Shown in pieces: positions 2,412 to 20,000 of a stretch of DNA of 20,000 nucleotides. The notes under the pieces are model-generated. The model saw only the letters and a program-made list of their open reading frames with translations, made no database searches and was not told the origin of the DNA. Source of the stretch: Psammoneis japonica (Eukaryota). Both the position numbers and the translations under genes were made by a program. Location: assembly GCA_008632985.1 (NCBI GenBank), contig QPGO01000142.1:182374-202373 (forward strand). The letters run 5' to 3'. The number at the start of each line of letters is the position of its first letter. Position 1 is the first letter of the stretch.

Positions 2412-3657
2412 ATGAGCACCTGCAAAATGAAGCAACGTGAGACCAACAAGCAGATCGAGCTGCTGCGATTGAAGAATCAAACAAACGAACTGGAATCAGC
2501 CATCAGAAAGGGAACATCGATGATTTTGCCACTCATCCCGCCCGGCAACGCCCAGCTCATTCGTGCCACCAAGTTGCTCAATGACGAGTTGCGAGTGGCC
2601 ACCAACATCAAATCTCGGGTTTAACAGGCAATCTGTCCAGAGCGCCATCAAGTCGGCTCAGCAGCGACTCAAGCTCTACAACAACAGGTGCCCAGCAAAT
2701 GGCCCAGTCGTCTTTTGCGGTCTTGCCGAGGTGCAAGACAGTCGAAAGGAAAGGATGACAACTGTTGATCTTGAGCCCCCTCAACCAGTCAAATTCTTTC
2801 TTTATCGCTGTGACAATCGTTTCCATGTGGATCGCCCAACTTCATCATGTGTTGAGGAAGGTGAAGAGCCATGCGGTTTCATTGTCGTGGATGGCAACGG
2901 GGCGCTCCTTGGTTTGCTGCAAGGGTCGCGAAGAAGAGTTTTGCACAAGTTTTCAGTCGATCTTCCCAGCAAGACTCATCGCGGAGGACAATCGGCTTTG
3001 CGTTTTGATCGGATCCGAGTGGAAAAGCGAAACATTTGCATGCGCAAGGTCACCAAGTTGGCCATGAATTCTTTTCTTTCTCACGGCGACCAGCTCAATG
3101 TGGCCGGTCTTGTCCTTGCTGGAAAAGCAGACTGCAAAAATGACCTTGTCCAGAGCAGCCACTTCAGGCGTCTCTGCGCTCATGTTGTGGCTTGTTTGGA
3201 TGTGTCGTTTGGAGGAGAACGTGGATTTGATCAGGCAATCGACAAAAGTGCTGAAACGATCGGATGCGTCACGCTGGTTCGCGAAAAGCGTCTGTTGGAG
3301 AACTTCTTTGAACACGTCGAGTGCGACACAGGAAAGCATTGTCACTCCGCAGAGGAAACCTTGCACGCTTTAGAAATGGGAGCCGTGAAAGATTTGATTG
3401 TATGGGACGGTCTTGATGTGACCCGCTGCGAGATGCAAAACAAAGAATCAGGGAAGCAAGTGGTTTCCTTTTTCTCCAAGTTGCAGGAGGAAACAAAGAG
3501 CGTCGATTCGTTTGCAGTTGCCAAGACAGAACCACTCCTTGATTGGATTGTCGACCATTGCAGTAATTTTGGTTGCAACTTGGAGCTAATGTCAGACAGA
3601 AGCGGAGTCGGAAAACAGTTTGCCGCAGGATTTGGCGGAATTTTCGTTAGCAGTTAG
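2412..3657 (+). pseudogene. eRF1: Eukaryotic peptide chain release factor 1 paralogue; frameshifted, 3'-truncated, TpA-hypermutated
   Basis: GTS and NIKS motifs (ATNIKSRV) lie in ORF 2331..2624. After an extra T in the T run at 2620-2622 the frame continues NRQSVQSAI..., YRCDNRFH (YxCxxxF), GFIVVDGNG and RGGQSALRF (GGQ at 2983-2991). It ends FGGIFVSS* instead of the usual FGGIGGILRY. Expected Tyr positions read Cys/His (DTGKHCH, VTRCE, DHCSNFG). No introns seen. Confidence 0.93.
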
Positions 3658-3964
3658 GGGTGTCTATGGGGTCGTAAGGGACAACGGTTGTCCCATTCTT
3701 GTACGCTGTATTTTCAGCCAAATATCATATCATGTCTTCAGTGAATTATGACTCAGCAATCCCCAATTATGACGATGCAACATTTAACAACATCAACATC
3801 CTTTCTGGCAATTATGACGCATCATCACTTAACACTGCCAAAATAGAAATGGAAAATGGACAGACGCAGTGGCGGGAAAACTGCATGCGTGCATCAACGC
3901 ATCATCAACCATCACCACACCGCGGCGACACCATGGCCACTCGGTTCCGTTCATACCGCCACGC

Positions 3965-4313
3965 TGGGATGATAAGACGGGTAAGAGCATTCATATAAGG
4001 TAATGTAAATGCCTCCAGTTTTATGGTGGTATTTTTTATTTGATGACTCCTCAAAGTTATTGTGTTATTTTCTATTTTCTACCAGTGCAGGTGGTTGGTG
4101 TTTTTTCTCTGCCGCCGACAAGATCGTTCATGAATCGACTGGTACTGGCGTGATAAGACGGGTGAGAGAATTTACAAAGGTAATTTAAATGTCTCGAGTT
4201 TGATGGTGGTATTTGTTATTTGACAACTCCTAAAACTTATTGTGCTCTTTTCTATTTTCTACCAGTGCAGATGTTTGGTGTTCTTTGTTTTGTTCTCTGC
4301 CGACGACAAGATC
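3965..4313. repeat. Diverged tandem duplication with ~180-bp unit; each unit contains a GT..AG intron-like AT-rich stretch
   Basis: 'gataagacggg...aaggtaat...tggtggtatt...tctattttctaccagtgcag...gacaagatc' occurs at ~3971-4125 and ~4152-4313. Confidence 0.9.
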
Positions 4314-4403
4314 ACGGCGGACAATCAGCCTTGAAAAGACACAGATTAGTGGTTAGTTGGCACCATCAGGACTTTGCTCCTCTTTTCAATGAATTGAATA
4401 TTG

Positions 4404-4575
4404 GTTGACTACAATACATTAGCTCTAGAAGAAACCCTCAGGTAGGAGCATGCACCATGCGACCACGTTTGCCTTTGTACACATGATGCTTCCGGCCCTC
4501 ACACCAAAACTGTTCTCTTCTTTAATGCAGATGCTACTGGCTATGGAGTGTGCATTGCTGCCACTGGATTGCTAA
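4404..4575 (-). repeat. Degenerate tandem copy of the 3' end of the adjacent minus-strand ORF (template ~4583-4787)
   Basis: Shared blocks 'tacaatacatta', 'atgcttccggccctcaca', 'ttctcttcttt.atgcag.tgct.ctggct.tggagt' and 'attgctgcc'. It translates to CEGRKHHVYKGKRGRMVH versus CEGRKHYVQNGLRGRVVH, with a stop and deletions. Confidence 0.88.
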
Positions 4576-4601
4576 CAAAAAATTGATTACAATACATTAA
4601 T

Positions 4602-5555
4602 TCACTCTAAAAGAATCCCGCGGTGGTTTTTTGTGCATGGAAAGGTATGCACGACGCGACCGCGTAAACCGTTTTGCACATAATGCTTCCGGCCCTCACA
4701 GCAAAATTCTTCTTCAGTTCTTCTTCTCTTCTTTGATGCAGGTGCTGCTGGCTCTGGAGTAGGGATTGCTGCCGCAGAATTAGCTACTTGCAGGTTGGTG
4801 GGGAAGCAAAATAGTGGACTGACAAACGAACCAACGCTTGTTTCAATCCATGGCGATGGCGGCGTCGGAACCGGGCGGAAGGGCGATGATGGGAGTTTGT
4901 GGAGAGTTGTTTCCTGCTTCAGAGTCTCTTCATACAAAATGTCTTCCACTATTGACTCAAAGTCTGGACCAAAATATTCAAAATCCGGCGGATCAGCAAC
5001 TCCAACATTGTCGGTCAAGCGTGCCGTCGTATCGGTTGGACCGACGAGCGAGTGATTCGGGTTCAGCAAAGGTGGAGTTTGTAAGCCAGCATCTGGTGTG
5101 GGAGCCAAGCAATGCAAAGGATCCACAGCGGGGATGCTTTCCCACAAATGGTCTAAAACCGAGTGGCCCAGCAGTCCACCGCCCTCTTGAGTTGCAAGAA
5201 ATGTGTTCTCCAATGGACCCCTCCTGAATAAATTGTTTTTGCATTCCTTTGGCAGCACCAGAAGGAAATTGGGTTGCACCTCTTTCAAAACCCGAACAGT
5301 CAGTTCATCTGGTGGATGGCAATTGGAAGCATTCGGATTTCTGTGGCACGTCGCATCGTGACCCTTCTTGCAGCTCGGTCCCCTCACACACCGTGGGCAC
5401 ATTTTTGCACCAAAGTCAACTCGAGTGAGCACGTTCTTTCGTATTTCTTCACTCTCATTGAACAGACAGCATGCACATCTAAACATTGCTTGTTCCTGTT
5501 GCTGGGCATGATTCGCAAACCCATTCCAGCAAGTCGGCGTGTTCTGTTGAAACAT
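4602..5555 (-). CDS. Hypothetical protein (~317 aa from ATG 5555) with two Cys/His clusters and an NLS-like KKRRR; possibly TE-associated
   Basis: Within the 402-aa open frame: CPRC-x8-GHDATC near the N-terminus and FCC-x11-RGRVVH-x3-C at the C-terminus, joined by a Pro-rich linker. The start codon is uncertain. Confidence 0.55.
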   Translation of the reverse strand: MFQQNTPTCWNGFANHAQQQEQAMFRCACCLFNESEEIRKNVLTRVDFGAKMCPRCVRGPSCKKGHDATCHRNPNASNCHPPDELTVRVLKEVQPNFLLVLPKECKNNLFRRGPLENTFLATQEGGGLLGHSVLDHLWESIPAVDPLHCLAPTPDAGLQTPPLLNPNHSLVGPTDTTARLTDNVGVADPPDFEYFGPDFESIVEDILYEETLKQETTLHKLPSSPFRPVPTPPSPWIETSVGSFVSPLFCFPTNLQVANSAAAIPTPEPAAPASKKRRRTEEEFCCEGRKHYVQNGLRGRVVHTFPCTKNHRGILLE

Positions 5556-5835
5556 GTTTAACTTTGAGGAAGACGGCGTGGGTGCTCCTTTTTGCACTCG
5601 TACCCATTTTGACAAAGAGCAGAGCCACAACAACAAGAGTAAGAGCTGTAAAGTTGTGATGAGATGCAGCAATATCGTGGTTCTTGAAAAGGAAAAGCAT
5701 CGACAATGGAAAAGCATGCGGTAACGTTCAACAATTTTCGAAAGATTAGCGCGGCAATTTCTATTTGTCACATCTACGGAAATTTTGTATGAAGGGGGGG
5801 CATGTCGCATATACCAAAATACGGCCGAATTTCAT

Positions 5836-5872
5836 GGGGGGGGCTTAAGTAAAAACAGCGCCCCCCCCCCCC
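5836..5872. repeat. G8/C12 inverted homopolymer hairpin at the junction between two sequence blocks
   Basis: ggggggggc-ttaagtaaaaacagc-gcccccccccccc, with another G7 run at ~5794-5800. Confidence 0.6.
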
Positions 5873-5874
5873 GC

Positions 5875-6645
5875 AAAATCATCAACGGTCGGTGGTGCGC
5901 AGTGCGCTGGGTGGTGAGGTGAAGAAGGACGGACCGAGGGTGCGCACAGACGGGCGAGTGGTAGCGGTGGTTCCGTTGAGCGGGTGTCGTCGAAGAAGAG
6001 CTTGACAGTTGGAGAGATGCGTTGAGAGAGCGAAGCCGAAGTTAAGGCCAAGGATTTGGGAGGCCCACAGTTGGGGTGTTGCGGTGTGTTGGGAGGTGCC
6101 AAAACGGTCGGGTGAGATTTGTTTCCAAGCGGTGTTGGCATGGGCCAAGAGGTTGGAAGGAGCGAGGAGGGAGGTTTTGCACAGGCAGAGAAGGAAGCGC
6201 GCGAATTGGAAAGGTCCGAAGGGCTTGTCCAGGGAGGTTTGGGCGGGATGGGAGGAATGGAGGAGGATGACATGGCAGAGTTGCCGAAGAAGAAGACGTG
6301 AAAGTGGTGGCCAATGCCGCCAAGGTGATCGAAGGTGAAAGGTGGAAGAAAGAGACCGGCTTGGTTGATGGCGTCGATGATGTCAGAGCGGCAGGTTGCA
6401 GATGTTGTGCGACCAAGGAGCTTTTCCCGTGTGCTGCTGAGGTGAGCCTGAGTGAGGAGGTTGTCTGGGGCAGGCAAACCAGGTGCAGGCGGCGGGGGAG
6501 CTGGAGGCACAGTCACATCGATGGCGACAAGTTGATGAGAGGAAGGGGCGGCAGGGGGTGCAGAGCCGGGGACGAGTTGGACTGCGACGTCGGCGGGACG
6601 TTTGAGTGGGTGGTCGGGGAGAAGGCCGGCAGGGTCAGCACTGAG
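5875..6645 (-). mobile_element. 3' fragment of a non-LTR retrotransposon with a restriction-like endonuclease (CRE-type); 5'-truncated and frameshifted
   Basis: PAGLLP...RPADV...AIDVT...H...REK...PFTFDHLGGIG matches the RPD-x-D-x-K-x-P-x-GxxG RLE layout. After a frameshift near 6180 it continues as TPQLWASQILGLN (ORF 5882..6148). No RT is present and TpA is depleted. Confidence 0.7.
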
Positions 6646-6986
6646 GTGGCGAGCAGATTTTGAGTCATTCCTGAACGAGAGAGCGCATGCGATGCGGAGG
6701 AGTAGAAGGGCAAGAACAAGATTCGAGAGCAAAAATCACGAGCCAAAGCGCGAAAAACAACCCGTTTTCGAAGTGTTTCGTAATTCGAACAAATTTGTTT
6801 AAAAATGTTGCTTTTTTAGGATCTCGCTCTCGCGCCTCGCGCCATCCGCCAACATCATCAACATGCAGGACGCATGCTGCACCAACACATCACCGCAACA
6901 GCCTTCTGCTTTTGTCAGGACTGCTCGATGTCAAAGTTTGAGTCTCCTTTTCTGTCATTGCCGTGCCTTGAAGTCCATTGAACACA

Positions 6987-7771
6987 ATGGAATGCCGTCC
7001 CAAACGCAAGGCTGCCGAAGCGGCATTGACGGCGATGAAACAAATGCGAGTGTGCGAGGACGCGCCCAACGAGGACGAATGTGATGCACAGAATCATCTC
7101 GAGAACGCTGCTGCCGCTTCTGCCCCGTGCTTTGCATCCGAAACGGTCACACTCCCCCATGAGCTTGGATTGCTTGTGCTTGAATTTCTTCCAAAACGCG
7201 AGCTTGTCCATGGCGCTTCTATGGTGTGCAAGTCTTGGCTCGCGGCCGCGCGGAATCCGAGTCTATGGCTTGCACTGGAAGCAGACATCTGGAGAAAAAC
7301 AAGCTTTGAACGTCGTTTCTCCATGAAGAGTTTTGTTTCCTTTCTCAATCGTCCACAATTTGTGTTGCTCCAAAAATTGGTGCCTCCGGATCTCTACAGA
7401 ACGCTGCTGCGCAACGTTTTTGATCGCATTGCCGCGGCAATCGGTGAGCATTTGGAGGAGTTTGATCTCTCGGGATGCACGTCGAAGTGCCGTTCGGTGC
7501 CAGTTCCTTATGACGAAGAATTCCTTCGAATCCCCACTCTGTTTCCAAAGCTCAAAAAGGTCTCCATCTGTTTGAGACATGTGCGAGAAGAGACCCTGGT
7601 GCAGTTCATTCAAGTCATGGGGGATCGACTCGAGAGTCTCGAAATTGTGGCGAAGGACAGTGAAGCTCATTTCTGCACGGACGCAACTCTAAAGGCGCCA
7701 GCTCAAAACTGCCCCAACTTGGAGTGTGTTCGACACAAGGACCCAGGACATGCAGACTTTACACTGGGACT
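6987..7771 (+). pseudogene. F-box/LRR-like protein gene, truncated at its 3' end by the LTR
   Basis: F-box LPHELGLLVLEFLPKRELVHGASMVCKSWLAAARNPSLW, then LRR-like units (LEEFDLSGC, FPKLKKVSI, LESLEI, CPNLECV). The frame runs into the LTR at 7772 and stops at 7794-7796. Confidence 0.85.
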
Positions 7772-8056
7772 TGGGATGCAACAATGCACTGTGTAGGATG
7801 GAGAGTTCAGGACTCTCTTGAGGTTGCACAACGCAACAGAGGATGACAAGAAGTGGGTTTGGGACAATGAGATGCGCCAAAGACACGAATTGTGAGAAGA
7901 TCTCACGAGGGATTGGAGATGACATTGTGACCTGACGGTCGTGTGTGTCACTCCGATTGCTGTCGCTAGAAGACTCAACGGACATTTCTTCCGGAAGAAG
8001 AGATCCATGACCGGGAGCGTCATCCGTGAATCAGACTCGGTTGTTGACTCGTGACT
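7772..8056 (-). repeat. 3' LTR (285 bp), TpA-hypermutated copy
   Basis: Colinear with 14758-15042, with 18 mismatches by hand alignment. Only 2 TA dinucleotides remain. Confidence 0.95.
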
Positions 8057-8065
8057 CTCCCTCTC
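8057..8065 (-). promoter_or_regulatory. Polypurine tract
   Basis: Minus-strand GAGAGGGAG directly precedes the 3' LTR. Confidence 0.85.
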
Positions 8066-8092
8066 AACCGAAAAGAGAAGGAGAACCATCAG

Positions 8093-11000
8093 TCACCAGC
8101 CCATGAGGGCTTTGCGACCAGTGCGGAATAGATCAACAGTCAATCCTTTAGCAAACTGGTCAGCAAGCTGTGCAGCTGAGCTCACAGGCTCAATTTTGAT
8201 CTCCAAAGCCTCAACTTTAGCACGAAACCAATGGTGGGGAATGCCGATGTGCTTGGTTCGTGGGGACAATTTTGGCATGCGGGCGAATTGGAGGCAGGCA
8301 GCATTGTCTTCGTACACAACGGATGCTGGGAGGTTAGTGGAGTCAATGGGAGAATCCTCAGTTCCGTCGTTGGCGTGTCGGAAAGCCTTCGAATGTGTCG
8401 AAATGTCGGTCTGTCTGTCCGGCTGTCCGAAAACGAGCGCGTTGATTTCCTTCACGATCTCGCGAAGGGGGATGAGATCACGCATCGCTTGGGAGAGGGC
8501 GACATGCTCGGCTTCCATGGTGGAGAGTGCGACGAGGGTCTGCAACTTGGACACCCAGACAATCGGACATCCAGCACAACAAATGACACATCCCGCACGT
8601 GACTCAACAGACGTGGGATCTTGTCCATCTTCAACACTGAAGAGTCCCGCGAAATCAGCATCAACATGGCAGTCGAGTCGTTGATCGGCGGTTGGAGTTA
8701 GGATGAGTCCTTTATCGGCCGCATCCTTCAGGTGACGAAGAATGCGCTTGATGGCCGCAGCGTGGGAGGCCTTGGGTGCGCAGGAGAACCGTGCGACTTG
8801 ATGGGTCGCGCAAGCAATGTCCGGGCGGCTGTTGGACGCTAGATGCATCAGCATGCCGACCACGGAACGGCAGTCGTGAGGCTCTTCGAACGGTGGCCCG
8901 TCGGTGTCGCTGCCAGCAGGAGCAGGCAAGGCAGGAGTGGGTGCGCCGTTGCACTCAGTCATCTGTGCGGTTCGGAGAACTTTCTCAATTAGGCCGGGTT
9001 GGGTCAGGAGGAATCGGCCGTCTTCGAGCTTTTGAATCTTGACACCTGGAAAGTTGCCGACTTCGCCTTCATCACGTAGATCAAAGACATGGCGTTGCTC
9101 ATCGTCAGAAATGCCCAACTTGGCAATCTCTGCTTCCAAGGCTTGGGCCGATGCGCCGGCGAACACGGTGTCATCAACATGTGCCACACATGACACACCC
9201 CTTTTGAAACAAAGACAAGGGTCAATGGCGGATTGAATCCATCCTCTTTCGAGCAATCCGTCCCTCAGCTTTTCAAAGAAGCACTTGGGAGACTGGCGTA
9301 GGCCGTGTGGGCCTTTCAATAATTTCAGCACCAGATCGGCGCCCGATTTTGGTTGGAAACCCTTGGGAGGCTCTACATGGACCTTCTCCTTGATGTCAGC
9401 TTGGCAGAAGGCTGTAGCACAGTCCACTTGACGTGCAGTCCAACCTTCCTTGAGTGCCGTGGTGAGGAGAAGGCGCGTGGACGACCATTGCACCACCGGC
9501 GCGTAGGTCTCGAAAAAATCGATCCCGTGTTTCTGCAAATCGCCGCGAACGCAACATCGTGCCTTGCACTTCAAGGGCGCACCATCCGGGAGTCGTTTGA
9601 GTTTGAAAGCCCATGTGCCGGGTAGTGCATTCATGTCTGCCGTTCTTGGCACCATTTCCCATGCACGTCGGTGGAGTGGCGCGTCAATTTCGATTTTCGT
9701 AGCCTCAACCCACTCTTCGGATTCATCGCTGCGCATGGCCTCGTGTAAAGAAGGCACATCGGGATCTTTTTGCTTTTTAGCAGTTGCANNNNNNNNNNNN
9801 NNNNNNNNNNNNNNNNNNNNNNNNNNNNNNNNNNNNNNNNNNNNNNNNNNNNNNNNNNNNNNNNNNNNNNNNNNNNNNNNNNNNNNNNNNNNNNNNNNNN
9901 NNNNNNNNNNNNNNNNNNNNNNNNNNNNNNNNNNNNNNNNNNNNNNNNNNNNNNNNNNNNNNNNNNNNNNNNNNNNNNNNNNNNNNNNNNNNNNNNNNNN
10001 NNNNNNNNNNNNNNNNNNNNNNNNNNNNNNNNNNNNNNNNNNNNNNNNNNNNNNNNNNNNNNNNNNNNNNNNNNNNNNNNNNNNNNNNNNNNNNNNNNNN
10101 NNNNNNNNNNNNNNNNNNNNNNNNNNNNNNNNNNNNNNNNNNNNNNNNNNNNNNNNNNNNNNNNNNNNNNNNNNNNNNNNNNNNNNNNNNNNNNNNNNNN
10201 NNNNNNNNNNNNNNNNNNNNNNNNNNNNNNNNNNNNNNNNNNNNNNNNNNNNNNNNNNNNNNNNNNNNNNNNNNNNNNNNNNNNNNNNNNNNNNNNNNNN
10301 NNNNNNNNNNNNNNNNNNNNNNNNNNNNNNNNNNNNNNNNNNNNNNNNNNNNNNNNNNNNNNNNNNNNNNNNNNNNNNNNNNNNNNNNNNNNNNNNNNNN
10401 NNNNNNNNNNNNNNNNNNNNNNNNNNNNNNNNNNNNNNNNNNNNNNNNNNNNNNNNNNNNNNNNNNNNNNNNNNNNNNNNNNNNNNNNNNNNNNNNNNNN
10501 NNNNNNNNNNNNNNNNNNNNNNNNNNNNNNNNNNNNNNNNNNNNNNNNNNNNNNNNNNNNNNNNNNNNNNNNNNNNNNNNNNNNNNNNNNNNNNNNNNNN
10601 NNNNNNNNNNNNNNNNNNNNNNNNNNNNNNNNNNNNNNNNNNNNNNNNNNNNNNNNNNNNNNNNNNNNNNNNNNNNNNNNNNNNNNNNNNNNNNNNNNTG
10701 CCCCCCTTCCAACGGATGGATGCGTGGAGGAGCATCGCTCTCGCCATGTTGGAGACGGAGCGAATGCCGCGTTCTGCGACGCCGTTCTGATGGTGGGCGT
10801 TGGTTCCGCAAAAACGCAGACGTTGTTCGTGCTGTCGTGTGTGTTGCACAAAAGCATTGGCCTTGAAAGCGCCAGAATCGGCAAGAAATTCTTGGATGAT
10901 GACGCCGTGGTCCATCGCGTGCTTTTCAAACGCTTGCTTCGCTCGCACCGTTTCCACAGCAGAGAAACCAAGTTGGTGTTCAATATGCAGGTAACCGGAG

Positions 11001-14000
11001 GCATGATCCACAAAAATGCAGCCTCCTTTGCATTGCTGGGACGAGGCCTTCCCGCAGGAGTCGCAGGTTCGGCCGAGGAGACGGGATTCGAAGTGATCCA
11101 CGCTGACAGCTTGGCCTGGGCGCAGATGCTCGGCTCGAAGAGCACCCTCACGCTCTGGAGCAGCCGTGTGTTTGGCAGACTTGAGGGTTCGGCGATGTCC
11201 TTTGGCACATTCGCGTGCCTCGCACCGCGGAATGTCGCAACGCGAAGCATGCTTGAATTTGGGTCGGAGAAAAGGTTCGGCCCGAAGCAGGCCTTGGATG
11301 CGTGGCATGTTCAGGTGACCAAACCTGAAGTGCCATTCTTGAAGGAGCTTCTGACCGGTGGTGAGGTTCTGGTTGTCCTCGTGCAACACAGACAGATTGA
11401 CTTGAGGAGCGGGTGCCACCCCGTTGGTCACAGACGCAACCGGCAAGTGATTTGACGCGTGCGCGACCTTGAGCGAACCGACGCCATCAACATGCACTCG
11501 AAATGAGTCCTCGTCTCCCTCATGTTTTCCTGTCACGCCATGTTCCTTGCTGTGGAGGCGTTGTGGGGATGGAAGACGTTGTCCAGCCTGAGGCACATGG
11601 CACGCCATCGTCTTGACGACGAGCTCAGAGTCGTCCTCGTCATGGAAAACCCAGGAGACGGGTCCGATGCCGGCGATGGTTAAGCCATTTGCTAGACCCC
11701 CAAGCTTCAATGGGCCATCAGGGATCGTCAGAGGTCCGACAAAGTCGTTTTCATCGTAAGCAATGGCTGAGGATGCGCCAGCATCGCACATGACGGTGTG
11801 GCGCTCATGTGCTAGGCTCAGCAAAGCTTGCGGGTCGGCGGCGAGTTGTGCTAAAGAACGTTGGCCCGTCAACACCTGCACAGAGGCATGAGTGGGACAG
11901 GCTTCGGTTCCGTCAGTAGCTGCCTGGAGAAGCTTCACAGGGTCTTGCCATGGAGTGGTGTCCACGAAACCAAACTTGGTGGACAGCTCGTCGAAACGAA
12001 AATAGTCCGGAGAGAGCTCCTCAACCGCATCAAAGTAGTGGCTCGGCTCGGTCGGGAGCGGGCCGAGGGCTTCCTCTGAATCATAGGTGTCGAAGCAGGA
12101 CTCGAGGTCTTCTAGAGCTGGAGGGATGCAGCGGCCTGGGGAAGAGCATACGTCGTTCTCCCAGAGCTGCGTGAATTTCTTGCTCAGATGATGGTCCGGA
12201 TCGCGCTCCACAAATTCGGCAAGCACTTGTCGCGCCTTGATCTTGTTGCACTCCACCAAACTGCCCGGATCTAACACTGTCTCATCGTCTGGTTCTTCAA
12301 TGATCGAGTAGACCTGAGAGCTGGCTTTGGAGAAGCGAGAAGGGACATTGGAGAATGGATGCGTGGGAAGCTGACCGTTGAAAACAGACGCCCAGACCAT
12401 GACAGCTCCAGTCAGCACCATCCAGGTAGAGGGGAAACCGTGAATGGTTGGGATGAATGCCTTGCGGCGCACACGACGAGGTAAGACAGGAATCGGCGCA
12501 CAGCAAATGTGCAGCACCGTTTCCCAGAACACAGCAAACAGCCAGAAAACTCGGAGCTTCAAGAAGTTCCAGAAAAGCTCAAGACGAGAGCTCGGCGTTG
12601 CCTCCTCGACGCTGCAATCAACATCTTGGGGTTCGGGATCGTAAAATTCGAAACCGCGATGCTGGGTGCTTGGAGGTAAGTGCTCGTAGCTGTCTTCGAA
12701 AGGTAGGATGCTTGCCCCGGAAACGAGATCGTCTGACACGTCGTCGGACAGACCTTCCACGTGAGTTGCGATCGTGTCATAAAACACGTCCGGATTTTGA
12801 ATCTCGTGCATGGCACAGGCCGGAAATAGCTCGACAGCTGACGGTGGGGAGTCAAAAGAGGAGTGAGCGTCGGAGCACTCGGAGTGATCGTCAGCGTCTT
12901 CGGGGTCAACCGTTTCAACCAAGATGGGAGCGGGTTTGGCCACGGTAGTCTCCCTCTCGGCCGATGGAGCAGGAGTGAACGAGACGGTCGCAGTCACTGG
13001 AGTCGAACTCAAAGAGTCGTCCACAGGTGCACACCACATGCCGCAACAAACCAGCTCGTTAGGGTCAGAGGGTTCGTCTGCAGGCGGAGGCGTCGTCTGC
13101 TCGGGAGGACCAAAAGGAATGCCCGAAGAGGGGTCCGACACAGCAGATAAATTTGCCGCAGCGGTGGTTTCGGTGTTGACAGACGGTTTCCCGGTGTGTT
13201 GAGCGGAGGAGTGGCCTTGATGCATGCCCTTCTTGCCCGTTTCCTTGTTCACACACTTGTCGCACCAGTGCCAGGTCGTGCCTTTCTCGTCGGTGACAGT
13301 GGCGCCTTTGTGAACGAAACGCCAGGCCGGCTTGGGTGGTTTCTTGGAAGGGTCAGTCTTCCGGACATCCGGAGGGTCATCCTTGGACTTGTCCGCCGTG
13401 CCCTTTTTGTCCTTCTTGCATTGCTCCTTGCAGGTGGGACACGTGCGTTTGGTGCACCCAACCTTGCCACAGCCGCAGCAATGCTTTTCCGAGTTGTCCT
13501 TGGCGAGGTTGGATTCCGGGAGCTTGGCTGCTAAGGCAGGCCAATCTTCATCGCTAATGAGTTCGCCATGGGTCTTGGTGATCCAGCCAACAAGGCCAAC
13601 AGGTCCAAGATCCGCATGGTCGGCATCCTTGGGGACTTCTGCCGGGTCATGCAAGCGACATTTGCGCTCCAAGCGCTTGACGGAGTCGAGCTTGGCAAAA
13701 ACTTGACGATTGAAAAACTCGGAGGATGTCTTTGACACCTTAGATAAAATGGCAGACCCAGTTTCAACTGGCAACGCACAGTCCGTCTGCATGATCTTGA
13801 GCAGGCGCAGAGCTTCGGTTGCAAGCTCGGTGCAGTCTTCGCCAGGGTGGCCATCCAGAGTTAAGTCGTTCAACTTTTCCTTGGCGGCCTTGACGTCAAC
13901 CAGAGCACTGGCGTTGCAGGCATCCAGAGCCATCATAAATAAGACAGACCCCGGAAGATCCTTGCAGTTCTTCAAGTGATTAAACTTGGTTTCAATCTTT

Positions 14001-14575
14001 TCACGGAAGGTTTCGGTGATGCGCGACTTGACGATGAGTTGTGATGAGCTGATGTCATCGATTTCATGCTGATCGTAGCCTTCGTCACCTGCAGCCGCCA
14101 CACGGGTCTCACATTCCTTCTCAAGGTCTTTGACAGTGAAGGCGTGAAGATGATCAAAAAGGTGCACGACCTTGCCGTCGACTTTCTTGAGATGGTAGAA
14201 AGTTTCTTGTCCGTGCGACTTGATTGAGTCCTGAATGGTCTTGACGAAGTGGTCTTTGTCCAGTTCAGTGCTGGAACCGTTGGACAACTCAATCTGGCCA
14301 TTGAACTTGGATGTGGTTGCCGAAGCGAGTTGATCTCTGAGAGATCGATCGACAGAGTCGACAGCTTTCGGATGGCGACGTTGCGAGGCAAAACGGCAGG
14401 TGCGGGTGTCGGTCTGCTCGCACTTGTTGTTCAGAGCCGAACCACCCAGATGCACTCCATGAGAGTGGTGGGTGCCGCCGCGAAGCGGCGTGGGGATCGT
14501 AGGAGGGTTGGTCGAGGTTTGCATCTTGGCGAAGGCCTCAGCAAACATCTTGACGGTGTCAGGATCCATGGACAT
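8093..14575 (-). pseudogene. Copia Gag-Pol polyprotein; open in the sequenced parts but catalytically inactivated by missense changes
   Basis: Gag knuckles CCGCGKVGCTKRTC and WHWCDKC..H..H; protease CDAGAS; WHFRFGH..C zinc region; integrase VSVDHF, FLADSG, QNGVAER; RT KARCCVRG, KGPHGLRQSP, AHVDD; RNase H DCHVDADFAG, STMEAEH, YEDN, QLADQFAK. Confidence 0.93.
9789..10698. other. Assembly gap (910 N) between integrase and RT
   Basis: Run of N in the sequence. Confidence 1.
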
Positions 14576-14616
14576 GGTTGTGGATGATTCGACATAGAGG
14601 ATCGATTAGCAGGTGG

Positions 14617-14672
14617 GGATTGCGACATAGATGATCGCCGTTGGATTGCGACATAGAAGATCGCCGTTGGAT
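14617..14672. repeat. 26-bp tandem repeat in the element's 5' leader
   Basis: ggattgcgacataga(t/a)gatcgccgtt twice, plus a partial copy at ~14590-14604. Confidence 0.9.
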
Positions 14673-14742
14673 GGGATGTCGTCTGCAACGAGACGAACGA
14701 GTGGCAGCAACTCCGTTGCGAGTTGATGCCGGTGCGTGGATT

Positions 14743-14754
14743 GGGGTCGTAACC
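14743..14754 (-). promoter_or_regulatory. Primer-binding site, probably of the half-tRNA(iMet) type
   Basis: GGTTACGACCCC lies 3 nt inside the 5' LTR end. It resembles the GGTTATGRGCCC anticodon-arm PBS of copia-type elements. Confidence 0.6.
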
Positions 14755-14757
14755 ACT

Positions 14758-15042
14758 TGGGATACAACAATACACTGTGTAGGATGGAGAGTTCAGGACT
14801 CTCTTGAGGTTGTACAATACAACAGAGGATGATAAGAAGTAGTTTTGGGACAATAAGATACGCTAAAGATACGAATTGTGAGAAGATCTCACGAGGGATT
14901 GGAGATGACATTATGACCTAACGGTCGTGTGTGTCACTCCGATTACTATCGCTAGAAGACTCAACGGACATTTCTTCCGGAAGAAGAGATCCATGACCGG
15001 AAGCGTCATCCGTGAATCAGACTCGGTTGTTGACTCGTGACA
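14758..15042 (-). repeat. 5' LTR (285 bp, TG...CA), unmutated copy
   Basis: On the minus strand it starts TGTCAC and ends TCCCA. It contains 16 TA dinucleotides. Confidence 0.95.
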
Positions 15043-17029: not shown

Positions 17030-18022
17030 TTAAAACAGCTTTGCATCTTTGCTTTTGTTTTTCTTCCTTCGTTTTGCCAATGCCTTGTTGATTGCGTTCT
17101 GCCCGCCTTTGCGCTTGAGCTGCTCATACTTGAGCTCTGTCGTTATTTGTTTCACTTTGTTGCGCTTCGGATAGTAACCCTGCTGGTGGTACTTTCTTGA
17201 ACGACTTTCTGAACTTGCTGTTGCAACCTGTCTGTTGTAGCGTCGCTCTCTGTTGAATCAATCGTTGCAAAGTAGCTTCATCTTGCTCCAACGTCGTTTG
17301 CTGCAATTCAGCTCGATGTGCTTGACGTCGTCGCTGTCCCCGCCTTCCGGTCAATTTTCGAAGCGCAATTCGCTGTTTAACTCTCTTTATTTCTTCTTGA
17401 TGCTTTTCTTTCATAAATTCATAGTTACGATTGGTGGCTTTTGTGTTGCCGTCAGAACTAAATCTCGGATCGCGAGCCTTGTATCTTCCGCTTCCAATCT
17501 CCACTCCAATGCCTGATGAGTTCAATAGAGGCGCACCACGCTGATAAAAATCACGTCGTAACGAGCTTGCCACTGTTGGAGCATGCTTGGACCTCTTCTT
17601 TGTTTTTGTCTCCTTTTCTGCAAGGTTCTTGTCCGACTTGTGCAGTTGTTCTCGTGCCTTTTCGATCGCCTCCTTTTTTCGTCGACGTTTGTCGTGTAAA
17701 GCCTTTGTTAACTTCATACTACCTTCTGAGCGCCGTTTCTCTAGTCGTTCTTGCAGAGTCATGTGCTGTTCAACGTCATCTTCATTGTCGTATTCTTCGT
17801 CGTGTTGACTGCTACTGCCACTGCTACTCTCGCTCGCTTCATCATCATCGCTGCTGCTACTACTGTCGAGAGAAACGCTGTCGTCTGACGGAAGGTCTTC
17901 CAAGCTGCGAATTTTAGCGACTGCCCGAGGGTGATTCCTCTGAGGAGGTTAATGACACGGAAGAATCATCACCGGAGGAGGACGAAGAGGAGGAGGCTGG
18001 CTCTGCCCGCTGCGTTGCTCAT
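17030..18022 (-). CDS. RRP36: rRNA biogenesis protein RRP36 (DUF947), interrupted by several 1-bp frameshifts
   Basis: Ser/Asp-rich N-terminus, then SKHAPTVASS, ARDPRF and YEFMKEKHQEE. After a shift at ~17180-17235 it reads GYYPKR..LKYEQLKRKGG..KALAKRRKKNKSKDAKLF* (TAA at 17030-17032). The likely ATG at 18022 needs two more frameshifts (~17920, ~18000). Confidence 0.82.
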
Positions 18023-18935: not shown

Positions 18936-19399
18936 TATTCACATACCTCCGGTACGTGGGTGACAGCACTCGTGTCCTGCCTTCGTACGTCGGCAGCAGT
19001 TTCGTTCAGTACCATTCTACGTGATTCTACGTGATTTTTGGAATTTCAATGTAGATATTAGAATCTGTATTGGTACATTATTTCAACAAGCGACTGCAGC
19101 GATTCCTCGCCATGATGACAGCCGACCATGACTTCGCTTTTCGCTTTGCCTTTTGGGGTTTGCCACCACTACACCGTCCGTGACGGGCCACAAGCTGGAT
19201 GAAGTACACTGTAGCGGCGCTGCCACTACAACAGCATCACATCCCAAACCAACCTTGGCGCCAAACATGACGCTGCATCTGTCCAAGGAACACCCGCACG
19301 TCGCAAGCAGCGAGCGTTCTTCTTCAAGTTTATTGGCATTACAAGCAAAGCAAGAACGTACCACATCTGCAACAACAACACGCAACACCACCGAGTGAA

Positions 19400-20000
19400 T
19401 GATGCAAAATCACGTCGAGTTGTTTGCCAAGTTCCGAACTCAATTGTGTCTGCCAACTCAATGGATTTGCTGACAATGTCCAGCGGCGGCCTTTGTCACG
19501 GTCCAAGCTGTGTCATCGTGATCCCACCCAAAAGTCACGATTTTGTCCGGATCTCGTTTCCAATGCTTTCCAGCACGTCTGCTGCCGTGTCCTGCGAGGC
19601 AGCTTGTGTTCCAGTGTCGCTTTTTTCGGCACCCATTGCCGCTCCACCTGTGCAAACTTAAACTTGTCAAGCTCATTGTTCTTGAACGGTTGGAAGACCT
19701 CAAGACTCTTCATTGCAAGATCTTGCAGCTGCTGATGGGCATTCTTCGCACGCTTGGTTCCGCAGCGCTGATTTTTGTGAGAAGGTTCTCGATGTTGCCA
19801 TGGACGTTGCTGATTTTTGTGTCGACGCTCAAGCGCAAGGTTGCCGAGACTGCTCAAGAGCAGGACTCTATCGCACCATGGCGGAAGCCAAGAGCATGGC
19901 CTGCCAAGAACATGCTGATTTGGGCCGTTCACAGATGCGCTGTGCGATTTCCCAATTTTGCCGAGTCGGTTGTTTTGCTCTCATGGACTTTTTGGCCGCG
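19400..20000. other. Further TpA-depleted zone with an unidentified, probably degenerate minus-strand coding relic running off the window
   Basis: About 2 TA in 600 bp by eye, CpG retained, and several Tyr-free overlapping ORFs. Confidence 0.55.

Follow-up and report, generated by a model that had tools for sequence, protein, structure and literature searches.

Loss of one dinucleotide by targeted mutation has been described in the chlorarachniophyte Bigelowiella natans, in which 230 of the 231 mutations found in two viral inserts of mutation-accumulation lines were A>G or T>C, all of them at TpA (Mettrop et al., 10.64898/2026.01.13.699255). According to the main text of that preprint, B. natans carries kilobase clusters poor in TpA and rich in CpA plus TpG, where TpG or CpA arises depending on the strand, and coding sequences low in TpA are enriched in reverse-transcriptase and DDE domains; its authors regard the process as a defence against foreign DNA and propose an ADAT2-like deaminase, and they also state that ADAR prefers U before the edited A (10.64898/2026.01.13.699255). 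Here we analyse a 20,000-nt stretch of the genome of the diatom Psammoneis japonica (contig QPGO01000142.1, positions 182,374 to 202,373; the whole stretch is called the window below), holding a long terminal repeat (LTR) retrotransposon of the Ty1/copia type, whose polyprotein frame is open and has lost nearly all of its conserved tyrosines. The pattern suggests a TpA-directed hypermutation which would also have reached the DNA around the element.

Fungal repeat-induced point mutation (RIP) converts C:G to T:A, mostly at CpA (PMC2621366, PMC7296669), and editing by APOBEC3 and ADAR, as summarised in PMC4866542, hits single-stranded cDNA or RNA, is strand-biased and concerns the element only. 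The Ty1/copia-like elements of diatoms are known as CoDi (Maumus et al. 2009, PMC2806351), and copies lacking a target-site duplication are ascribed there to recombination between copies (PMC2806351); the text of the same paper makes no mention of hypermutation, TpA, deamination, point mutation or dinucleotides, and a 2025 preprint on diatom transposons makes none of TpA hypermutation. A full-text literature search, covering main texts, found the B. natans preprint as the sole description of TpA hypermutation and none for diatoms; the main text of that preprint mentions neither diatoms, stramenopiles or other species nor flanking or trinucleotide context. With the locus presented below, TpA-directed hypermutation would be known from two lineages, and from a diatom for the first time.

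Tyrosine loss and LTR differences of a copia-type element

Domains and repeats place the element among the diatom LTR retrotransposons of the Ty1/copia type (Table 1). Its open reading frame (ORF) carries a match to the copia-type reverse transcriptase (RT), and it is flanked by direct LTRs identical at 270 of 287 bases, with an adjacent polypurine tract; the LTRs are called left and right by their position in the window. As the polypurine run lies beside the left repeat, the right repeat is the 5' LTR on the element strand. Along the polyprotein, the protease D-x-G motif at residue 931 is followed by a weak gag-pre-integrase match (residues 1078-1114) and then by the RT (1638-1883), while RNase H (RH) was assigned by homologue alignment only and the integrase core falls in an assembly gap. 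What is seen of the open frame are thus two resolved stretches of 1292 and 564 codons, separated by 910 N, which is not a multiple of 3; the spacing between the gap edges has a median of 321.5 residues in homologues (interquartile range 310-334, n=120) compared with 304 X in the window.

Homologues were obtained by querying a protein collection with the RT-RH part, which yielded 931 proteins with E<=0.001 among 8000 scored candidates, and the best 120 of these were used. The closest ones share 59-60% identity with the element, and those bearing a species name among the best-scoring rows (best 120 of 931) belong to the diatom Fragilaria crotonensis. The same collection was also searched for sibling copies, among longer proteins with the RT-RH part and among proteins of near length with a 201-aa piece; the best matches reached only 60% and 58%. 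A scan of metagenome contigs for relatives of the element gave just two remote loci with 25-27% identity. The family has many copies, given that many contigs of one sample map onto the element.

A first-pass annotation, made from the sequence alone, had reported only 13 tyrosines in about 1850 resolved codons, and our count gave the same 13 in 1856 resolved residues (0.70%), next to 4.47% His and 3.18% Cys. In the best 120 homologues Tyr amounts to 1.59-3.90% with a median of 3.04%; with the median as the expected rate, 13 or fewer Tyr in 1856 residues have a probability of 2e-12, and with the lowest of these values one of 5e-4.

Alignment and tabulation were carried out with the 120 homologues, whose columns were anchored by BLASTP to the query and kept if at least 30 homologues covered them and at least 70% agreed. 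The window deviates at 87 of the 557 conserved columns that passed. Only 2 of the 26 conserved Tyr columns are kept, the other 24 having turned into His (14), Cys (7), Phe (2) or Trp (1), and at the 21 columns with Tyr>His or Tyr>Cys just 66 of 2046 homologue residues are H or C. Other conserved residues are mostly intact (Gly 57/58, Pro 34/34, Asp 28/29). Thr is changed at 11 of 22 columns, with T standing before the codon in all six Thr>Ala replacements, and the three Leu>Pro changes have the codon CCA in every case. Conversion of TpA to CpA, TpG or CpG alone accounts for 38 of the 87 changed columns, whereas each of the other 15 dinucleotides accounts for 0-23, so the direction of mutation that had been deduced from the motifs holds without recourse to the LTRs. 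On the coding strand these 38 changes are divided into 19 T>C and 19 A>G.

The motif substitutions singled out earlier agree with the homologues, which conserve Tyr at the altered positions of HVDD, PHGL, CHVDAD, EAEH and PHHWF, and also the Leu of LYGL (Table 1). The protease motif DAG had been ascribed to TpA loss as well, and its Ala codon indeed follows a T, at a column where homologues have Ser or Thr and never Ala. In the case of CKARC, derived in the annotation from YKARY, a Tyr ancestor is plausible for both columns but not established, as homologues are mixed there (F 50 / Y 38 / H 16 / L 14 and F 63 / Y 51). Considering the altered invariant residues, the protein is very probably inactive. 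A Cys that is invariant in homologues (113 of 116) is replaced by Arg (CGC) at residue 1121 (position 11215), within the zinc-binding region that precedes the integrase; this is a T>C change outside TpA, hence not all damaging changes come from the TpA process.

The two LTRs differ at 17 of 287 positions. The right LTR has 16 TpA sites, and 15 of the differences are located at 14 of them (P=6e-13 for 15 of 17 falling by chance on the 32 TpA bases). At these positions the left LTR always has G or C, giving TG, CA or, once, CG. Transitions make up 16 of the 17 differences, including the 15 of TpA type with G or C on the depleted side; the two remaining ones, outside TpA, are G/T and G/A. The single TA>CG site requires a second change outside the TpA context, which means that the specificity towards TpA is not absolute. 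Differences outside TpA being so few, only two in 287 nt of LTR, the element counts as young on the scale of ordinary mutation, and this scarcity has preserved its frame.

TpA-depleted tracts within and beyond the element

Depletion is not limited to the element. Three tracts, A, B and C (Table 1), were delimited by TpA counts per 250 nt; their edges are sharp, and the DNA between them is near normal in TpA. Apart from its 5' LTR, the element lies wholly in tract B, which continues to the left beyond the 3' LTR into 1.9 kb of non-copia DNA, made up of a piece rich in G and a low-copy stretch that carries an F-box-like ORF. Inside the tracts TpA drops to 7.7 per kb from 45.3 outside, CA plus TG rises to 172.8 from 148.2, CG to 57.3 from 50.2 and G+C to 53.3% from 46.1%; the drop of ApT, to 48.0 from 66.1 per kb, is milder than that of TpA. 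The TpA odds ratio is 0.20 in the ORF region and 0.61 in the right flank, and about 83-88% of TpA sites are gone in depleted DNA. The depletion in the non-copia DNA of tract B and in tract A implies a regional process, not one specific to the element. The idea of a retrotransposon-centred hypermutation has therefore to be modified: the element is affected, but so is low-copy DNA which is not copia.

Conversion of TA to CA or TG only destroys TA, so it makes no new TAA or TAG, and TGA can come only from an existing TAA stop. In six frames TAA plus TAG are found at 0.33-0.64 per 100 codons in the tracts versus 1.74-1.91 outside, with TGA unchanged at 1.7-2.4, which is what was expected by the first-pass annotation from a process that creates no stops and removes TAA and TAG. 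The five other frames across the ORF have 37-77 stops each, so the open frame is the original coding frame.

The TpA sites which remain are not a random sample. Those in RTAY, mixed and YTAR contexts (R, purine; Y, pyrimidine) number 5, 54 and 35 in the tracts and 103, 149 and 53 outside (P=2e-8), and the effect holds for tract A (1.7e-4) and tract B (6e-7) separately: RTAY sites are nearly all lost and YTAR sites are best kept. A pyrimidine precedes 12 of the 13 retained Tyr codons, compared with 10 of the 21 mutated ones (Fisher P=0.011). It seems that the whole tetranucleotide sets the susceptibility of TpA. A one-strand model was rejected. It supposes that a pyrimidine following the target A, or a purine two positions ahead of it, promotes the change; at YTAY, with Tyr codons and LTR sites pooled, the outcomes were CA 7 times and TG 6 times (hand count), so such a rule does not predict which of the two bases changes.

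Contigs of a public run, built by another assembler, differ from the window at 804 positions, 40 of which are listed. A second version is present at 1980-2969 at roughly equal depth, with 33 listed differences. Nine of these have TpA in the contig and lack it in the window, and none is the reverse. Four, at two sites, are CA against TG at one place, as independent changes of one TpA would give. Ten have CpG in the contig against TG or CA in the window, two are the reverse, and eight are of other kinds. Inside the element, 13591-13592 reads CA in the window and TG in the contigs. The depleted low-copy stretches 1-1006, 2049-2459, 2664-3125, 5887-6379 and 7014-7393 match contigs with 0 other letters.

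Among the neighbouring ORFs, the eRF1-like one of tract A has 150 relatives with a median of 2.87% Tyr. It keeps the GGQ motif, its NIKS region is unrecognisable against human eRF1, and its nearest relatives, with 62% and 47% identity, are environmental proteins of 287-394 aa with the same start, not canonical diatom eRF1. Of the 12 Tyr aligned with the 47% relative (hand count), 2 are kept and the others are replaced by Cys (4), His (1) or Phe (5). The ORF could be part of a mobile or viral family. Among the genes that clearly belong to the host, RRP36 lies closest, with 76 matches at 31-65% local identity, the named diatoms among them (Chaetoceros, Cyclotella, Thalassiosira, Discostella) being at 33-45%; these relatives speak for a diatom host and against B. 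natans, and the hypermutated tract stops short of the gene. Tract C is repeated by contig depth and its ORFs are without Pfam match, as are 9 of the 11 flanking ORFs in the window; tRNA genes and Rfam families were not found in the window.

Several local features were also noted. At 1-2500 the CpG odds ratio is 0.14-0.37 and those of CA and TG are 1.6-2.05; this part of tract A seems to have undergone CpG>TpG decay in addition to TpA hypermutation, and CpG is normal in tract B. At 1378-2078 a 347-nt unit is duplicated in tandem (2.0 copies, 97% matches). Over 668-1334 the summed contig depth is about 24,000, compared with 40-90 in the adjacent DNA, and 1283-1316 is where many contigs stop; a short piece of a very abundant repeat is probably located there. 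Contigs of two runs connect 3642 to 6642 with 10 other letters between them, and the stretch 3643-6641 is therefore an insertion here or a deletion in another version. This stretch is composite, with TpA near normal at 3643-5875 and nearly absent at 5876-6641, and has a G-run/C-run junction at about 5838-5875; without its TpA-normal part, tracts A and B would form one domain. In the leader, which separates the 5' LTR from the start codon, there is a 26-nt tandem repeat (14617-14672, 2.2 copies, 96%).

Table 1. Positions of the element, its parts and altered motifs, the depleted tracts and the neighbouring ORFs in the window
Feature	Position	Strand	Description
gag-pol polyprotein ORF	8093..14575	-	2160 codons, 304 of them X; zero internal stops
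Assembly gap, 910 N	9789..10698		covers integrase core and linker to RT; 304 codons unreadable
RT domain (Pfam RVT_2)	8927..9664	-	E=1e-35; 124 bits, cut-off 31.6
Weak gag-pre-integrase-like match	11234..11344	-	PF13976; E=0.0074; 16.5 bits, under cut-off 28.4
RT motif HVDD	9170..9181	-	codon CAT; homologues Y 113/120, H 0
PHGL replacing LYGL	9299..9310	-	codons CCA, CAC; homologues L 120/120, Y 119/120
Protease motif DAG	11777..11785	-	GCT with T before it; homologues S 52, T 49 of 101, A 0
CHVDAD motif		-	homologues Y 104/120 at the His position
EAEH motif		-	homologues Y 115/117 at the His position
PHHWF motif		-	homologues Y 112/113 at the first His position
3' LTR (left), 287 nt	7769..8055	-	TpA-depleted (2 TpA); direct repeat with 14755-15041
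5' LTR (right)	14755..15041	-	TpA not depleted (16 TpA); direct repeat with 7769-8055
Putative polypurine tract	8056..8065	-	10 purines on element strand; adjoins 3' LTR; function suggested by position
Tract A, TpA-depleted	1..~3640		low-copy by contig cover; CpG also depleted in 1-2500
Tract B, TpA-depleted	5876..14750		0-5 TpA per 250 nt, 8-18 expected
Tract C, TpA-depleted	19251..20000		sharp start; runs off the window
eRF1-like ORF, tract A	2524..3654	+	eRF1 domains 1-3; N-terminally short; intron-free; 2 Tyr/377
F-box-like ORF, tract B	6972..7793	+	PF12937; E=2e-9; 2 Tyr/274; abuts 3' LTR
RRP36 rRNA-processing gene	17127..17948	-	PF06102; normal TpA; 2 kb from the element

Probable regional hypermutation and its alternatives

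We consider it probable that TpA was converted to CpA and TpG on both strands by hypermutation at the DNA level, acting regionally, and that the element lies inside an affected chromosomal tract. A:T to G:C transitions on either strand would turn TpA into CpA or TpG, and sometimes into CpG; Tyr codons (TAY) would become His or Cys, Thr, Ile and Leu codons touching TpA would become Ala, Val and Pro, and in this way invariant residues of the RT and the protease would be altered while the frame remains open. By likeness to B. natans, the process would act on integrated double-stranded DNA in domains of kilobase size. The simplest chemistry would be deamination of adenine in the 5'-TA-3' context; the tRNA substrate of ADAT/TadA presents A34 with U33 before it. 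Modified or oxidised thymine at TpA, mispairing with G, would give the identical pattern, and because TpA is self-complementary the adenine and thymine routes are indistinguishable from sequence.

A number of observations weigh against this interpretation. Tract B stops at the inner boundary of the 5' LTR, to within some 10 nt, where a purely regional process predicts no stop, and its other edge, at about 5876, coincides with a sequence junction; the tracts could be a mosaic of pieces mutated elsewhere. No target-site duplication was detected at the LTR ends, which share neither an exact 5- or 6-mer nor an adjacent match, so the two LTRs possibly come from two copies. The LTR pair may then compare these copies, in which case the spectrum would still be valid, with the mutations not dated after insertion. 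Tyr codons and LTR sites pooled show a 24:12 lean to one strand (P=0.065). The contigs, moreover, represent one sample, possibly the source of the assembly itself, and hence give no independent confirmation. The plainest explanation of the unmutated LTR is that it derives, together with the right flank, from another, unmutated copy, via recombination or assembly; one contig connects 14408 back to 7863, i.e. the interior to the mutated version of the LTR.

Some of these points would also suit an APOBEC3-like event, in which a deaminase edited single-stranded cDNA (or RNA) during retrotransposition and the copy was dead on arrival. In reverse transcription it is the minus strand across the 3' LTR and the interior that remains single-stranded for the longest time, and copying reaches the 5' LTR at the end; this strand-transfer order fits a mutated 3' LTR and interior, a spared 5' LTR and an edge at the junction of LTR and interior, and the strand lean points the same way. 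Even so, we find cDNA editing unlikely. The lean is not significant, and codon changes are equally frequent on both strands, whereas editing of the sense RNA would yield A>G only. Depletion is just as strong for 1.9 kb past the 3' LTR, in low-copy DNA which is not copia, and in tract A with its eRF1-like ORF, and the missing target-site duplication suggests that the LTRs whose contrast is to be explained are not a true pair.

Much less credible is a living family with a natural scarcity of TpA and Tyr and with HVDD and DAG as its working consensus, perhaps adapted to evade a TpA-directed defence. A frame open across 1292 and 564 codons and the many copies indicated by contig cover would be expected of such a family, but the homologues hardly ever have H or C at the 21 columns (66/2046), with H in 0 of 120 at YVDD and A in 0 of 101 at the protease motif, one LTR retains 16 TpA where the other has 2, and non-coding and non-element DNA is equally depleted.

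We give very little credence to a technical origin, whether through base calling or polishing that errs systematically at TA or through an assembly that is purely chimeric. The N gap, the coincidence of tract edge and LTR edge, the lack of a target-site duplication and the contig leading from 14408 to 7863 could all be read in its favour, and a chimeric join could explain the edge at 14750, but not the loss of Tyr relative to homologues of other species; an error would not keep to sharp kilobase tracts, and contigs of the other assembler, possibly from the same sample, match the five depleted low-copy stretches without a single other letter. Slow ordinary decay, whether driven by GC-biased gene conversion or by an AT->GC bias that repeats show in general, is barely conceivable, since, despite the raised G+C of the tracts (53.3% vs 46.1%), the changes are confined to TpA (15/17 LTR differences), ApT is far less depleted and only 2 non-TpA differences are found in 287 nt of LTR.

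With regional hypermutation of TpA kept as the preferred explanation, the earlier interpretation of the element as a retrotransposon probably disabled by missense changes, in a frame open over its resolved codons, is, on the whole, supported by the sequence comparisons. Going further, we can tentatively imagine an editing defence acting over chromatin domains with a preference for the palindromic RTAY, common to diatoms (Stramenopila) and chlorarachniophytes (Rhizaria) and possibly old in the Stramenopila, Alveolata and Rhizaria (SAR) group, which would silence transposons, viral inserts and their neighbours by missense alone; this broader proposal is somewhat more doubtful than not.

Significance and comparison with known systems

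A TpA-directed mechanism may be widespread in marine algae. It would constitute an AT-to-GC counterpart of RIP which leaves frames open, and annotation based on ORFs would be misleading in such genomes; were the SAR-wide defence real, many intact-looking protist ORFs would be dead, and a shortage of Tyr along with a surplus of His and Cys could serve to find them. Dating by LTR divergence would mislead as well, as 15 of the 17 differences counted here reflect hypermutation, not clock-like decay. The RTAY/YTAR effect constrains the candidate enzyme, and those working on base editing would take an interest in a natural A:T->G:C editor that acts on DNA and has a short motif.

The element resembles CoDi in being a copia-type element of a diatom with the protease before the RT, in LTR identity inside the 94-100% given in PMC2806351 and in having its best matches among diatom proteins. 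With RIP the locus shares a regional, dinucleotide-specific transition hypermutation of repeats and their neighbours and the resulting skew of dinucleotide ratios. The direction is opposite, however: RIP, as C:G>T:A at CpA, makes TpA and stops and lowers G+C, whereas here TpA is destroyed, no stops arise and G+C goes up. Clustered deaminase-type transitions crippling a retroelement also recall APOBEC3 and ADAR, whose editing is strand-specific and restricted to the element, while in the window both strands are changed and the depletion extends beyond it.

The closest likeness is to B. natans, as its preprint describes it: in both cases changes are nearly only A>G or T>C, confined to TpA and clustered in tracts low in TpA and high in CpA plus TpG. 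The hosts differ, a chlorarachniophyte (Rhizaria) there and a diatom here, and so do the targets and the stage observed: de novo events, mainly in giant-virus and virophage inserts, were seen in B. natans, whereas the window presents an end state in an LTR retrotransposon and low-copy DNA. New here are the near-complete TpA loss, the RTAY/YTAR context, the spread into low-copy ORFs and the consequence of Tyr loss in an open frame, the context effect and the Tyr consequence being absent from the abstract, Results and Discussion of the preprint. The loss of TpA is also far more complete at the present locus, with an odds ratio of about 0.1-0.2 as compared with 0.45 in the viral region of B. natans.

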